16,909 nucleotides of DNA, taken from the UHGV virus genome UHGV-0043514. One strand, given 5' to 3'. This stretch comes from a virus. The notes under the pieces are model-generated. The model saw only the letters and a list, made by a program, of their open reading frames with translations, was not told where the DNA came from and made no database searches. The position numbers were made by a program, and so were the translations under genes. Shown one piece after another: positions 2,754 through 12,565 of this stretch; positions within the stretch are counted from its first letter, which is position 1; each line of letters opens with the position of its first letter.

Positions 2754-3068
2754 TTAATTTATTCGTATGCCTGCTCTTTCTTCATCGAGTTTTTTTAGCT
2801 TGTATCGCATAGCCCTTACTGAATAAATTGAGCGGCAGGTTGCAATTGCTATTTCTTCTGCGGAGAACTTACCGAAAAGTGATACTTCGGCTCTTGTCCA
2901 GCGTCTTCCACGAAGTCGGCTAACAATGTCAGCGCCAATCCTTGTTGCTTTCGCCATTACTGCTTTTTCAGTCCTTTCCAGTTTTTCAGCGATAACTTCA
3001 ACTGGCATTGTCGCCGCCACTTCGCGCAAGAAATCGACTTCCCATTTCTCCCATGGAGTCTTTTTCAT
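2754..3068 (-). CDS. Hypothetical phage protein (104 aa) with two tandem Myb/SANT-like helical repeats
   Basis: Internal duplication [40 protein letters not shown] versus [35 protein letters not shown]; pattern W-T-x-x-E ... EEIA ... R ... A resembles homeodomain-like DNA-binding repeats. Confidence 0.45.
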
Positions 3069-3079
3069 AGGCGATACCG

Positions 3080-3562
3080 TTATTTGATAAGAAGTGAAGG
3101 TTTCCCAACTTTGAGTTGAGCGCCGGGGATATTTATTCCTGCTTTTAGTTGGTGTTTGATTGCCAGTTTGTCGGCTTTAATTGTCGTTTCAAACTCAACG
3201 TATTCAGAAGGAAGGGCGCTTGAGTCGATGATTTCTACAGTTTCTGACGGTTTGCGGATTGTTACCTGGTGAATACCTGCTCGAATCTTTTTCTTGCCAA
3301 CCATTTCAAGCGATGACGCTATATACGCCATAATGCTGTCAATCTTATTTTGAATTACTGCGGCTCGCTCATTCAGTGACTTTGCCTCTTCCTTGAGGCG
3401 TTCGGCATAACCAGATTCATTTTTAATGACGGAAAGAAGTTGCTCTATTTTATCGGTAAATTCTCCTTCCATGCCTTCTATTGTGTCAGCAATCATCTCT
3501 GGTTCTAAATCTGAATCCATCAATTTTGCGTATTCATTGGCAATTTCATACAGTTTGCTCAC
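3080..3562 (-). CDS. Mu Gam-like / Sipho_Gp157-like protein, putative DNA-end-binding host-nuclease inhibitor (160 aa from GTG 3562; track gives TTG 3568)
   Basis: N-terminal coiled coil, C-terminal KKKIRAGIHQVTIRKPSETVEIID...KLAIKHQLKAGINIPGAQLKVG resembles the Mu Gam family pattern; directly downstream of recT; GGAGG 6 nt upstream of the GTG. Confidence 0.5.
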   Translation of the reverse strand: MSKLYEIANEYAKLMDSDLEPEMIADTIEGMEGEFTDKIEQLLSVIKNESGYAERLKEEAKSLNERAAVIQNKIDSIMAYIASSLEMVGKKKIRAGIHQVTIRKPSETVEIIDSSALPSEYVEFETTIKADKLAIKHQLKAGINIPGAQLKVGKPSLLIK

Positions 3563-4448
3563 TGGCAACCTCCAGTTTCGCTTTGCATTCTGCGTAAATG
3601 GCTTGTACGTTCTGCTGCAATTTCATTCCAGATGTCAGGCGATATGCTTCTGCAAAATATCGCTTCAAATCATCCATGTTTTCAGCATGAGCCATTTCAT
3701 CACAAAGAAGTTGTGCTTTTTCCATTATTTCCTGCTGGCGTTTCCGTTCATCTTCGCGGATATCTTCCTCTGATTTGTGCGGCATAACTGGTTCCTGATG
3801 CATACCTTCATCTTCGTTAAGCAGGTGAATGGCATTATCCAGTCGCTGGGCTTTAGGCCAGTATTTGCTGGCGCGTTTAACTATTGTTTTACGTGCCATC
3901 TCTTCCCAGAATGTTTTCCACGGTCCATTCTTTGCCTTGCTCGTTGCTTCCACAGCTTTAATTTCTGCCAGACTCATTTCTTCAGTCAGGTAGTCACCAT
4001 CTGCTGTTTTAACCGTGCAATAACCTCCAACAATAGAGCCTCGCTCACCAAATGCGTTGTATTTGTGGGTTGGTGCTGAATCAAGGCCATTTGATTCATA
4101 GGTGTCGTTTGAGTACACCAGTTTGCATTGCCCCCACTTAATTGATCCTGTCGATTGCGCAAGATGAAGTAATCCCATGTAACTGATATCAAGGCACACC
4201 ATGCCGTCGCGAGGAACCAGATAAGCCAGTTTGCTGGCCGGGTTTAAGGTGATGCCGATCGCCGCAACATTGATGATGGCGTTCTGTGCGCTGGTTGGAT
4301 TTGCCAGTGCTGTTTTAGCCAGGTAATCGTTTTTCTGGAAATACTGAATTGCAAACTGGCTTTCCTTAGCCCATGTCACCGTCTGTTCAGTCAATGCTCC
4401 GCAGAATAACTGCTCTTGCTGTTTAACGAATTCAACGATATTGCTCAT
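3546..4448 (-). CDS. recT: RecT-family single-strand annealing recombinase (300 aa)
   Basis: Size and sequence character of RecT/Red-beta family proteins (VAAIGITLNPASKLAYLVPRDGMVCLDISYMGL...KTIVKRASKYWP); occupies the bet position of the pL operon. Confidence 0.8.
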   Translation of the reverse strand: MSNIVEFVKQQEQLFCGALTEQTVTWAKESQFAIQYFQKNDYLAKTALANPTSAQNAIINVAAIGITLNPASKLAYLVPRDGMVCLDISYMGLLHLAQSTGSIKWGQCKLVYSNDTYESNGLDSAPTHKYNAFGERGSIVGGYCTVKTADGDYLTEEMSLAEIKAVEATSKAKNGPWKTFWEEMARKTIVKRASKYWPKAQRLDNAIHLLNEDEGMHQEPVMPHKSEEDIREDERKRQQEIMEKAQLLCDEMAHAENMDDLKRYFAEAYRLTSGMKLQQNVQAIYAECKAKLEVASEQTV

Positions 4449-4841: not shown

Positions 4842-4990
4842 TTCCTGCGATACCACGGAAGATTGATAGCTGATTTCATCGCTTTATTTGCTTCAAGCCA
4901 CATTTTTGAATCACCAATAAATCTGGCTATTACTGCTTTGTTTTGTGCAGCACGAAGCATCTGGTGATTAATGGCTATTTCATTGCGCAT
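4838..4990 (-). CDS. kil: Kil-like small protein (50 aa), possible host cell-division inhibitor
   Basis: MRNEIAINHQMLRAAQNKAVIARFIGDSKMWLEANKAMKSAINLPWYRRK; the FIGD-x-KM segment and the size and position (between cIII and the recombination genes, overlapping cIII) match my recollection of lambda Kil; not in the supplied ORF track. Confidence 0.45.
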   Translation of the reverse strand: MRNEIAINHQMLRAAQNKAVIARFIGDSKMWLEANKAMKSAINLPWYRRK

Positions 4991-5109
4991 AACGCCTCCA
5001 GTTGTTTCTTTGCTGCTCTGATTAATTGTTTAACTCGGCGTGATAATTCAGATTCGTGCGGGTAGAAAGCGGACATGACGCCGCTACCCGCGAGCTGAAA
5101 GTGCATCAT
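4975..5109 (-). CDS. cIII: CIII-like protein (44 aa from ATG 5109; the track's 79-aa ORF extends upstream)
   Basis: MMHFQLAGSGVMSAFYPHESELSRRVKQLIRAAKKQLEALCAMK resembles lambda CIII (MQYAIAGW...ESLLERITRKLR); AAGGAG 6 nt upstream of the ATG; overlaps the Kil-like ORF as in lambda. Confidence 0.65.
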   Translation of the reverse strand: MMHFQLAGSGVMSAFYPHESELSRRVKQLIRAAKKQLEALCAMK

Positions 5110-5175
5110 GGGTAACTCCTTATATTTGATTGCATAACGAAAACGCCTCGAGTGAAGCGTTATTGGTATGCATAT

Positions 5176-5199
5176 AAAAAGGCCCTCACATAGGAGGGC
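5176..5199 (-). terminator. Intrinsic terminator-like hairpin on the minus strand, upstream of cIII (tL-type)
   Basis: Plus strand aaaaaGGCCCTCacatagGAGGGC; on the minus strand a 6-bp GC stem followed by CUUUUUAU. Confidence 0.4.
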
Positions 5200-5259
5200 A
5201 AAGAAGATTTCCAATAATCAGAACAAGTCGGCTCCTGTTTAGTTACGAGCGACATTGCT

Positions 5260-5291
5260 CTGTGTATTCACTCGTTGGAATGAATACACAG
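5260..5291. promoter_or_regulatory. Perfect 11-bp inverted repeat CTGTGTATTCA-N10-TGAATACACAG
   Basis: Seen directly; lies 125 bp upstream of the SieB-like gene; candidate operator or RNA hairpin. Confidence 0.35.
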
Positions 5292-5350
5292 TGCAGTGTT
5301 TATTCGTATGCCTGTCTTTTAACCACATCAGGCTCGGTGGTTCTCGTGTA

Positions 5351-5400
5351 CCCCTACAGCGAGAAATCGGATAAACTCTATTCACCCCCTACAGAGAGAA
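5351..5400 (+). repeat. Two direct repeats CCCCTACAG(C/A)GAGAA, 35 bp centre to centre, immediately upstream of the SieB-like start
   Basis: 5351-5365 cccctacagcgagaa and 5386-5400 cccctacagagagaa (14 of 15 identical); the second ends 16 nt before ATG 5417. Confidence 0.4.
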
Positions 5401-5416
5401 TGATGGAGATTCACCG

Positions 5417-5956
5417 ATGAGTAACTGGTGGCAGGAACTATTACGTTTCTTCCTGCGTGGTCTTACGCTACAACAGTTAATTCATATGCTTATTATTTTA
5501 ATTGCCTTGATAATAATCACCCCTGCATCAATTAAAGAGTGGGTAGATATAAGGAACCCAGAAATACTTCCAGATCACTGGATGTATTACGCAATGCTTT
5601 TGTGTATCAGTTATGTTCTGAACAGGGTGATGGAGTTTATATTTCTGGCATCTTCAGACAGATATAAAAAATATCTCAGTAAGAGAGATGAGGCTAAAGT
5701 AATTGTGGAGACTGAGCGCCTGTTCAATTCTCTGAGTATTCAGGAAAAAGAGGTTTTAGCATTTGCTGTTATGGCAAATAACAAAATCGTACTTAAGCAC
5801 GGCGATCCGGTCGCTTTATCTCTTATGAGAAAAGGCCTTCTCCATCGCTCAGGTGTGACTTACAGCGCGTCAGGTAAAGAGAAATTTGTTATACCTGACG
5901 TCTGGTTCCATGAGTGTTATATGCGCTTTGCTGGTAAAGCTGATGAGCTAATTTAG
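5417..5956 (+). CDS. sieB: SieB-like superinfection exclusion membrane protein (179 aa)
   Basis: Two N-terminal hydrophobic segments (LIHMLIILIALIIITPASI; WMYYAMLLCISYVLNRVMEFIFLA) and a soluble C-terminal half; rightward gene convergent with N, as I recall sieB in lambda; GGAGA Shine-Dalgarno 7 nt upstream. Confidence 0.5.
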   Translation: MSNWWQELLRFFLRGLTLQQLIHMLIILIALIIITPASIKEWVDIRNPEILPDHWMYYAMLLCISYVLNRVMEFIFLASSDRYKKYLSKRDEAKVIVETERLFNSLSIQEKEVLAFAVMANNKIVLKHGDPVALSLMRKGLLHRSGVTYSASGKEKFVIPDVWFHECYMRFAGKADELI

Positions 5957-5977
5957 TTCCTCGACGGCGGGGGATCG

Positions 5978-6250
5978 TCACCTCGCTGTCAGTTGTTTTG
6001 ATTTCCGGTAGCCTGCCGCGTAAATAGCTACGTTTGGCAGGCAAATACTTCCACTGCATTCATCTGCCTTCTTGCAGCAAAGGCTTCCTAGTGATGCTGC
6101 TTTGTCTGCTCTGACGCAACCAGAGAGCTTTAGCGCAATTTTTCGCGCCAGTGCTTCATTACTGCGTCGCTCGGCAATAAGTTCTGCTCTGCGAGCTTTG
6201 TAGCGGCTTTTTGCCGTACCTTTGGATTCTTTCCAGACAATGGTTACCAT
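5978..6250 (-). CDS. N: N-family transcription antiterminator (90 aa from ATG 6250; the track's ORF starts upstream)
   Basis: Arginine-rich motif GTAKSRYKARRAELIAERR near the N-terminus; C-terminus LPNVAIYAAGYRKSKQLTAR resembles P22 gp24 / phage 21 N as recalled; AAGGAG upstream; first gene after pL and nutL. Confidence 0.8.
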   Translation of the reverse strand: MVTIVWKESKGTAKSRYKARRAELIAERRSNEALARKIALKLSGCVRADKAASLGSLCCKKADECSGSICLPNVAIYAAGYRKSKQLTAR

Positions 6251-6360
6251 GATGGTCTCCTTTAAGTGGCTTTGGCGCATGACGCGTCGAGGTGCTTATC
6301 TTCTCGATCGCTGTCTTGCAGCTGCAATTCGCGCCATCCCCAAAACCACTCAAGTTCTGG

Positions 6361-6401
6361 TCTCAACGGTTAGGTTGAGAGTCCGTCGATGTTAAAGAGC
6401 C
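6361..6401 (-). promoter_or_regulatory. nutL: boxA (GCUCUUUAACA) plus boxB hairpin UCUCAAC-CUAACC-GUUGAGA
   Basis: Reverse complement of 6390-6400 is GCTCTTTAACA (boxA consensus); 9 nt downstream a perfect 7-bp stem with loop CUAACC (plus 6361-6380). Confidence 0.55.
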
Positions 6402-6564: not shown

Positions 6565-7215
6565 TTAAGGAAGGTTTGCTAGCTTGGCATCAACGACAAC
6601 GCCAATGATTTTACAGTTCCCATTGATTTCAATCATTGGGTATTGTGGATTGAGTGGTTTCAGGAATTTTCTACCGGCATCAATAACTAACTTTTTGAAT
6701 GTCGCCTCGTTTTCTCCTTCAAGTTTGGCGACTACCAGCTTTCCATTACGTGGTTCGACTTCTGGGTCGACGAGAATAATCATCCCCTCAGGAATACTCA
6801 GTCCTGCCGGGGCAGTCATTGAATCGCCTTTAACGTCGAGCCAAAAAGAGTCTTCAGAACAATCTACCGTTGTGTCGTACCAGTTATCTATTGCACGCCT
6901 ATGATATGGCTCTACAGCTTCCATCCAACATCCTGCGCTTACCCAACTAATTAGAGGATACGAACCTCTTGGATCATGCCTGCTGTGATAGGCAATGTTT
7001 GAAAGACTATCCTCTCCTTTCAACAGGTAATCAGGGGAGCACTGCAAAGCCTTGGCTAAGGCCAATAGGTTTTCGCCATTGGGCTCAGTTTCAGATCGCT
7101 CCCATTGGGAAATAGCAACATTAGACACGCCAACCATCTTGCCAAGGGCAGCCTGCCTAATCTTGAGTTCTTTTCTGCGAGCGCGAATACGCTCACCCAT
7201 CAGTTGTGTATTCAT
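6565..7215 (-). CDS. cI: Phage repressor, P22 C2 type (216 aa): N-terminal helix-turn-helix, C-terminal LexA-like autopeptidase domain
   Basis: MNTQLMGERIRARRKELKIRQAALGKMVGVSNVAISQWERSETEPNGENLLALAKALQCSPDYLL... matches P22 C2 as recalled; catalytic-domain motifs GDSM and KLVVAKLEGENEATFKKL. Confidence 0.93.
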   Translation of the reverse strand: MNTQLMGERIRARRKELKIRQAALGKMVGVSNVAISQWERSETEPNGENLLALAKALQCSPDYLLKGEDSLSNIAYHSRHDPRGSYPLISWVSAGCWMEAVEPYHRRAIDNWYDTTVDCSEDSFWLDVKGDSMTAPAGLSIPEGMIILVDPEVEPRNGKLVVAKLEGENEATFKKLVIDAGRKFLKPLNPQYPMIEINGNCKIIGVVVDAKLANLP

Positions 7216-7596: not shown

Positions 7597-7893
7597 ATGG
7601 CACAAGCAAGCTACAGCAAGCCAACACAGCGAGAAATTGATCGCGCAGAAACAGATTTACTCATCAACCTGTCAACGCTTACCCAGCGCGGTCTGGCAAA
7701 GATGATTGGCTGTCATGAATCGAAGATAAGCAGAACGGACTGGAGATTTATTGCTTCGGTCTTGTGTGCTTTCGGAATGGCATCAGACATCAGTCCGATT
7801 AGCAGGGCTTTTAAGTATGCGCTTGATGGACTCATCAATAAAAAACGCCCGGCGGCAACCGAGCGTTCTGATCAAATACAAATGGGATTTTAA
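7597..7893 (+). CDS. cII: CII-family transcriptional activator (P22 C1-like, 98 aa)
   Basis: C-terminus NKKRPAATERSDQIQMGF is nearly identical to the lambda CII C-terminus (KKRPAATERSEQIQMEF); helix-turn-helix in the centre; position after cro and nutR. Confidence 0.88.
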   Translation: MAQASYSKPTQREIDRAETDLLINLSTLTQRGLAKMIGCHESKISRTDWRFIASVLCAFGMASDISPISRAFKYALDGLINKKRPAATERSDQIQMGF

Positions 7894-12290: not shown

Positions 12291-12320
12291 TTGACGCGAT
12301 GATTTATCCGGGGCTATATT
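12291..12320 (+). promoter_or_regulatory. Sigma70-like promoter (TTGACG, 17-bp spacer, CTATAT/TATATT) immediately after ninE
   Basis: -35 TTGACG at 12291-12296; -10 CTATAT at 12314-12319; predicted start near 12327. Confidence 0.5.
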
Positions 12321-12381
12321 CCCAGCATGCCAGCAAAATCTGGCGTCGGGATTGGCGTCCCGGATAGAGACCGCGACAGAC

Positions 12382-12404
12382 ACACGCCGCGAGCGTGTTT
12401 TTTT
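12382..12404 (+). terminator. Strong intrinsic terminator (ACACGC-CGCGA-GCGTGT followed by T7)
   Basis: 6-bp GC-rich stem, 5-nt loop, then tttttttatt; about 75 nt downstream of the predicted start of the 12291 promoter. Confidence 0.6.
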
Positions 12405-12565
12405 ATTGTCGAATGCACGCGCACATCTGAATTATGGTGGGCTGTGTGGGGGCGGAGAGATCCGCGCCGGTCGGTTTCCCGGTTACGCCAACCCTGCACA
12501 GTTCACCACCAGACGATTGGCGTCGTCGGTGGTGAGTTATTTAGAAACCACTCGAGGGCGTCATT

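Follow-up and report, generated by a model that had tools for sequence, protein, structure and literature searches.

Paired direct repeats upstream of a prophage sieB gene lie in a homologue of the P22 PsieB/sas/esc control region and may match two loops of an antisense RNA

SieB-type genes kill or abort the infections of rival phages, and a phage that carries such a gene must therefore switch it off during its own lytic growth. To our knowledge, the sas switch of phage P22 is the only described solution to this problem, and it has hardly been studied since 1993. The PsieB promoter, the sas RNA and the sieB/esc translational switch of P22 were reportedly described in that year by Ranade and Poteete, and the start site of the P22 sieB message was reportedly mapped by RNase protection. 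A related principle is known from IS10, where the loop of the antisense RNA-OUT pairs with the 5' end of the short-leadered mRNA, RNA-IN, and covers the ribosome-binding site.

According to reviews, the P22 sas antisense RNA causes Esc to be translated from the sieB message in place of SieB. In the curated P22 record (BK000583), the sieB promoter is annotated at 29690-29720 (TGTACCCCTACAGCGAGAAATCGGATAAACT), the 'sieB RNA start site' at 29727 and the internal in-frame esc start at 29830. A sequence named 'P22A-sas' is also present in a 2026 small-RNA data set (PMC13397905), where it occurs only in infected cells. Its reads are the exact complement of BK000583 29636-29762, a span that begins 5 nt within sieB, takes in the leader with its start site, the promoter, the two repeats considered here and a conserved 32-nt block, and ends 17 nt past that block. 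An antisense RNA of P22 thus covers both repeats.

The DNA analysed here (the window) is a stretch of 16,909 nucleotides from the virus genome UHGV-0043514, and its relevant features are collected in Table 1. The cI-like repressor, N, sieB and cIII follow one another as in lambda and P22, and the locus represents a lambdoid prophage's left early (pL) operon, within which sieB points the other way. Since the N gene lies on the minus strand, leftward transcription of the pL type reads antisense through sieB and the repeats. This arrangement resembles the morons of lambdoid prophages, in that sieB has its own promoter and terminator, opposes the early operon in which it lies and is prophage-expressed; however, a shared 32-nt block with a covarying hairpin in front of about 45 genes, as described below, is absent from the moron concept. 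The N gene converges on sieB, and its 3' end overlaps the terminator-like hairpin behind sieB.

Table 1. Features of the sieB locus, with positions numbered along the window
Feature	Position	Strand	Description
RecT	3546-4448	-	
cIII	within 4975-5214	-	
Intrinsic terminator-like hairpin with U run	5182-5199	-	between the 32-nt block and cIII
Sas-like antisense RNA region	5309-5421	-	homologue of the P22A-sas reads; putative in this phage
Conserved 32-nt block	5310-5341		GCCTGTCTTTTAACCACATCAGGCTCGGTGGT; single occurrence in the window
Hairpin 1, adjoining the block	5341-5365	-	sense TTCTCG-TGTACCCCTACAG-CGAGAA; antisense UUCUCG C UGUA GGGG UACA CGAGAA
sieB promoter	5347-5377	+	homologous to BK000583 29690-29720; -10 hexamer TAAACT at 5372-5377, identical in P22
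Repeat copy 1	5351-5365	+	CCCCTACAGCGAGAA; forms the loop and 3' arm in hairpin 1; by homology, positions -34 to -20 in the sieB promoter
Second antisense stem-loop	5366-5416	-	over copy 2 and the ribosome-binding region; prediction only
Inferred sieB 5' leader (33 nt)	5384-5416	+	start A5384 corresponds to P22 29727
Repeat copy 2	5386-5400	+	CCCCTACAGAGAGAA; +3 to +17 of the inferred sieB mRNA leader
sieB coding sequence	5417-5956	+	179 aa; Pfam SieB PF14163, E 3e-20
Esc internal in-frame start	5486	+	Met24, invariant across five SieB proteins
Terminator-like hairpin directly after the sieB stop	5963-5990	+	closes the sieB transcription unit
N-type antiterminator gene	5978-6280	-	
cI-type repressor	6565-7215	-	

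From the block to the ATG, the window and P22 are identical at 98 of 107 positions (92%), and the sieB and esc start codons of P22 align with those of the window. The region lies upstream of a sieB gene that opposes the leftward operon, it has homologues of the P22 promoter and start site, and the gene contains the internal Esc start. Judged by these sequence features, it is the known PsieB/sas/esc control region of P22 and lambda, so that the original prediction, which recognised no known operator in the motif, had treated a described region as an unfamiliar one. As in P22, it opposes the pL operon and has gene 24/N on one side and ral/cIII on the other, and the two phages share the -10 hexamer, the start-site context, the esc methionine and both repeat copies. 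Unlike P22, the window has a different 3' part of the leader (GAATGATGGAGATTCAC versus GTAAAAAGAGAATCGC) and one extra C in copy 2, and its left flank consists of an inverted repeat, a terminator and cIII in place of ral. The homology also confirms the proposed placement of the repeats in the promoter or 5' UTR: copy 1 falls in the promoter and copy 2 in the leader, where it starts at +3 in the window and at +2 in P22. A simple sigma-70 promoter scan of 5000-6400 on both strands returned nothing, so the promoter assignment rests on the P22 homology; on the leftward strand, no convincing sas promoter was seen.

The repeat search of the window found a single 15-nt family with exactly two members, which match at 14 of 15 positions (93% identity) and start 35 bp apart, with 16 nt between the end of copy 2 and the ATG (local sequence ...GGTGGTTCTCGTGTACCCCTACAGCGAGAAATCGGATAAACTCTATTCACCCCCTACAGAGAGAATGATGGAGATTCACCGATG). 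The two near-identical copies, their distance and their position before the start codon were therefore correctly predicted. The search for the motif elsewhere in the prophage, which had been proposed along with them, yielded only these two copies: nothing else in the 16.9 kb is a good match, the single hit with three mismatches, at 7621, being at chance level. No other 15-mer in the entire window is directly repeated within 60 nt with one mismatch or none. Nevertheless, 11 of 200 dinucleotide shuffles gave at least one such repeat, and from the window alone chance would still be possible with so weak a significance. The reality of the repeat rests instead on conservation, since the copies are invariant where their flanks have diverged.

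Absence of the repeats from homologous loci had been named as part of what would speak against the original prediction, and both copies are in fact kept in relatives. They are found at a spacing of 34-35 bp in lambda, P22, SPN9CC, Lambda_2E9, Yersinia pekkanenii and two Arsenophonus genomes; copy 2 of the window has five C (ACCCCCTACAG), while most relatives have four and hence a spacing of 34 bp. In lambda, Lambda_2E9, SPN9CC and P22, the sequence from GCCTGTC to the first repeat is base-for-base identical, and the second copy retains at least CCCCTACAG. A search of genome contigs for distant SieB loci yielded only four. In the Yersinia pekkanenii locus and the two Arsenophonus loci, the copies are 34 bp apart and the sequence between and around them has diverged. 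Megablast matches to the sieB 5' flank, at 89-93% identity, are spread over 378 phage records and 988 of the 5,426 complete genomes of E. coli. This prophage, lambda and phages of Yersinia and Arsenophonus thus have one control region in common, two-copy target motif included, and both copies are invariant in the sieB loci of E. coli, Salmonella, Yersinia and Arsenophonus. Within the gene, the first 24 codons up to the esc start (5417-5490) are unusually conserved at the nucleotide level among phages of E. coli, Salmonella, Yersinia and Arsenophonus, and the proteins diverge beyond codon 24; this conservation hints at an overlapping regulatory signal in the sequence.

The block and the adjoining hairpin are not confined to sieB. 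A collection anchored on 20 nt of the invariant stretch comprised 119 viral contigs with 94 distinct contexts, all of which share the 32-nt block GCCTGTCTTTTnACCACnTCAGGCTCGGTGGT. Directly after the block comes a hairpin whose stem varies from locus to locus and yet stays Watson-Crick, as in TTCTCG/CGAGAA (window), TACTGG/CCAGTA, TGCTGG/CCAGCA, TTCTTGG/CCAAGAA and TCCTTTTA/TAAAAGGA; at least 10 fully Watson-Crick stem types occur. A covariance model was built on the antisense strand, and 79 matches (72 distinct) were aligned. Among the six pairs of hairpin 1, five change on both sides, with 98.3% of cells paired, and the covariation score of 0.247, compared with 0.072 in shuffles (0/500), is well above all slid controls. 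This alignment was fitted to the antisense model, which favours structure, and the independent listing of stems agrees with it. The block-proximal hairpin therefore covaries. A consensus rich in C and A emerges when the loops from all families are aligned.

The hairpin around copy 2 is weaker. In the window, it is predicted to have an outer stem (5366-5370 with 5412-5416) and an inner stem (5382-5403), and compensated changes are seen between families: CTCT/AGAG here, CTCTTAC/GTAAGAG and TCTCAC/GTGAGA elsewhere. Within the block itself, a helix ACCAC/GTGGT has compensatory variants in diverged blocks (CTACC/GGTAG, CCTCA/TGAGG, CCACA/TGTGG and CCACC/GGTGG), whereas a second possible helix, GCCTG/CAGGC, shows uncompensated variants only. 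Because one helix covaries and the other does not, we do not claim an H-type pseudoknot for the block. Comparison of positions 5060-5480 with the families of Rfam 15 gave no match at gathering level and only chance matches at E up to 10; likewise, a gathering-level Rfam scan of the entire window revealed nothing near the repeats beyond chance. We also considered the block as a plain promoter alone. The single-unit families do show TGGTATnCT after the block, but the would-be -35 contains a variable position, the supposed spacer is invariant, and the two-unit families keep the block though the mapped promoter lies downstream of it. This candidate was rejected.

Two types of loci can be distinguished. 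Most have a single unit consisting of the block, the hairpin, a Shine-Dalgarno sequence and the ATG, the start codon following the block at a distance of approximately 36-40 nt. The TG-n-TATnCT element of such loci is part of GGTGGTATnCT, and their mRNA is predicted to start in the hairpin loop. The two-unit loci, to which sieB belongs, are without the TAT and have instead a -10-like hexamer between the units (TAAACT, TAAAAT, TAAGCT, TAGACT, TAATCT/GATAAT, TATAAT or TATAGT), the second copy beginning at +1/+2. Five such families were found, with the motifs CCCCTACAG, TTCCACAGTCAAA, TCCCCAACAACAA, TCCCCAA and CACCACAACATC. Each repeats its own motif exactly over 7-14 nt, always 33-36 bp apart, and between families the motifs match at a mean of only 4.7 nt. 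In all of them, copy 2 lies 6-7 nt after the -10-like hexamer and coincides with the predicted mRNA start. The two copies have thus changed in concert in five families, and a common rule holds for one-unit and two-unit loci: the loop of the block-proximal hairpin has the sequence of the first nucleotides of the sense mRNA.

The strand on which the structure would act can be approached from these comparisons. In P22, the sieB mRNA starts too far downstream to include hairpin 1 or the 5' arm of hairpin 2, and complete hairpins could therefore be present only in a leftward RNA. In the ACCAC/GTGGT helix, C faces A at several places when the sense strand is read, and these become G.U pairs on the antisense strand; the opposite case is absent within the helix. 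In the hairpin, five wobbles are of the antisense type and two of the sense type. This G.U asymmetry, behind which stand few lineages, favours the antisense strand. Diverged blocks without an obvious rightward gene (L132, L134 and L138) also fit a function on the leftward transcript. The folding energies of the antisense RNA are modest (MFE z-scores -1.0 to -2.3). As for the original suggestion of an RNA-level element, a role at the RNA level is now better supported, by P22 sas and by the covariation of the hairpin, but an element acting in the 5' UTR of the sense strand is unlikely in view of the mapped P22 start.

The best reading of the repeats, which we place just on the probable side, is that a leftward antisense RNA presents two stem-loops, each of which matches the start of the sieB mRNA. 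Read along the sieB strand, copy 1 would lie in the promoter and copy 2 would form the first nucleotides of a short sieB mRNA. Transcription from pL would pass in turn through N, the antisense strand of sieB, the repeats and the 32-nt block, and this prophage would thereby make a sas-like antisense RNA, in which the complements of copy 2 and copy 1 would each be held in a stem-loop, and beyond these the block would give rise to a structured domain at the 3' end. Such an RNA would pair with the 5' end of the sieB mRNA and its ribosome-binding region. As in P22, translation of SieB would be shut off while the internal Esc start would still be used, and the phage would escape its own exclusion in lytic growth. 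The duplication itself may exist because both antisense loops, including that of copy 1, must match one target, the mRNA 5' end; the concerted change of the two copies in sister families would follow from this. We infer that the mRNA start moved by one unit away from the block and that the block-proximal loop stayed matched to it. Two points speak against a strict need for a second loop, namely that an antisense RNA encoded in cis is by nature complementary to the whole leader and that single-unit families work with one hairpin.

As regards known antisense systems, the proposed RNA would resemble the RNA-OUT/RNA-IN pair of IS10, at the level of complementarity, in having a stem-loop whose loop is complementary to the very first nucleotides of the mRNA: copy 2 is at +2/+3 and the complements of both copies lie in predicted loops. 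Unlike IS10, with which there is no sequence relationship, two loops of the same sequence and an additional conserved 3' block are present here, and the antisense RNA is probably part of a long operon transcript instead of being initiated at a promoter of its own. It would also be comparable to lambda OOP, P22 sar and P1/P7 C4, short antisense RNAs by which lysogeny or immunity functions are adjusted, but the targets and structures of these are different, and the Rfam models, including that of C4, which has matches elsewhere in the window, miss the region.

A serious rival, if an unlikely one, is that the repeat is the relic of a tandem duplication. A leader unit of about 35 bp, made of the hairpin and the trailing GAGAAATCGG, would have been duplicated, and no pairing between the complement of copy 1 and the mRNA would take place; copy 2 would be the mRNA 5' end, and copy 1 would be kept only as the -35/spacer part of the promoter and as the loop of a structural hairpin. 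The two units are in fact alike beyond the 15-mer (TCTCG..CCCCTACAGCGAGAAATCGG compared with CTCT..CCCCTACAGAGAG..GAGAATCGCC), copy 1 overlaps the annotated P22 promoter, and single-unit relatives exist for several loop types, which makes independent duplications plausible. Folding predictions likewise give no special exposure to the copy 1 loop, both antisense sites being equally accessible with about 0.5 unpaired each. On the other hand, promoter spacers are not normally conserved base for base, whereas five families keep their copies identical at 33-36 bp while the flanks diverge, and from E. coli to Arsenophonus both copies of the sieB motif are invariant although the spacer and the 5' arm differ.

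The two remaining explanations dispense with an antisense RNA. In the one, which we regard as very unlikely, a longer rightward transcript would carry the block and hairpins as a sense-strand leader that sequesters the ribosome-binding site, in the manner of a thermosensor or riboswitch. The block does resemble a compact conserved domain, in single-unit families the hairpin's 3' arm borders on the Shine-Dalgarno sequence or extends into it, and a few G.U pairs are found on the sense strand (L016 and L161); in general, however, the G.U pairs favour the antisense strand. Moreover, the P22 start site lies downstream of hairpin 1 and inside hairpin 2, every family has a -10-like hexamer before the last copy of its motif, the window contains no rightward gene or promoter upstream, and Rfam offers no match. 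In the other, which also appeared in the original prediction and seems to us most improbable, the repeats would be tandem sites for a DNA-binding protein, a repressor or an activator of sieB transcription. Centred at about -27 and +10, they bracket the promoter core, so that a bound protein could block RNA polymerase, and their spacing is fixed at 33-36 bp. Yet the motif occurs only here in the window and is thus not an operator of the immunity repressor or Cro; it has no dyad symmetry, and the covarying stems around copy 1 point to a nucleic-acid structure rather than to a site in duplex DNA. Sister loci in related prophages carry unrelated motifs such as CACCACAACATC and TTCCACAGTCAAA, unreadable by a single protein, in front of adjacent genes that are themselves unrelated and mostly without a Pfam match, which makes a common regulator unlikely.

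The antisense reading can be extended beyond sieB, since the block and hairpin lie upstream of about 45 unrelated families of small ORFs (viral contigs L004-L162). Where flanks are available, these ORFs are found 0.5-0.9 kb to the left of an opposite-strand repressor gene of the HTH-S24 type, beyond which follow cro-like genes. Most have no Pfam match, the exceptions including SieB, one BssS and zinc-ribbon fragments. In L042, L122, L133, L145 and L150, two block-hairpin elements follow each other in the same orientation at 0.8-1.3 kb, which suggests tandem accessory-gene cassettes, each with its own element. We tentatively propose, as a possibility that is less likely than not, that the repeat is the sign of a portable and undescribed control cassette of lambdoid prophages, which silences the genes of a slot by means of a loop matching the mRNA 5' end. 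If so, the cassette would consist of the 32-nt block and a covarying stem-loop on the leftward transcript, and it would mark a hypervariable slot beside the immunity repressor that is filled with prophage-expressed genes, in some cases as a tandem array. At least 45 unrelated families would occupy this slot, SieB being only one of them; in every case the antisense loop would match the first nucleotides of the sense mRNA, so that firing of the early leftward promoter would silence the slot gene, and two-unit versions such as sieB would keep a second matching loop. Sas would then be the first known example of a large family of antisense switches through which prophages gain immunity to their own defence genes.

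The sharing of the region among these phages, and of its core before dozens of genes, turns the one-off P22 switch into a testable general rule for how prophages protect themselves from their accessory or defence genes. Furthermore, the 32-nt block can serve as a simple sequence flag for prophage-expressed genes of unknown function. The searchable literature contained no description of the block apart from the sas sequence (P22 OMV paper), which is weak evidence of novelty, and nothing relevant on a lambdoid hotspot. The conserved two-copy design, its recurrence in five families and the block shared before many genes appear to be new, and as far as could be checked the architecture of the repeats and their generality lie outside the published description of P22.

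Several further RNA elements were noted in and around such loci. Between the 32-nt block and cIII, the minus strand of the window has an inverted repeat with 22-nt arms (5252-5299), followed by the terminator at 5182-5199; they may represent a terminator of the tL type or else mark where a longer sas-like RNA of about 240 nt ends. There is a resemblance between the terminator and the 3' end of the STnc100 consensus in Rfam, and in contig L005 a genuine match to the STnc100 sRNA (3043-3265, minus strand; 49.1 bits, gathering 47) lies directly leftward of the block at 3277-3308. A 2026 preprint has linked STnc100 to the prophage sRNA PasD. As an explanation of the repeats, STnc100/PasD was rejected, the window having only the terminator that resembles the STnc100 3' end. 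Far from sieB, Rfam matches on the plus strand between 12314 and 12513 comprise the c4 a1/b1 target element (12314-12366, 49.8 bits), isrK (12327-12403, 73.6 bits) and the C4 antisense RNA (12430-12513, 66.7 bits). This stretch is an antisense immunity module of the P1/P7 type in the late-regulatory part of the prophage.
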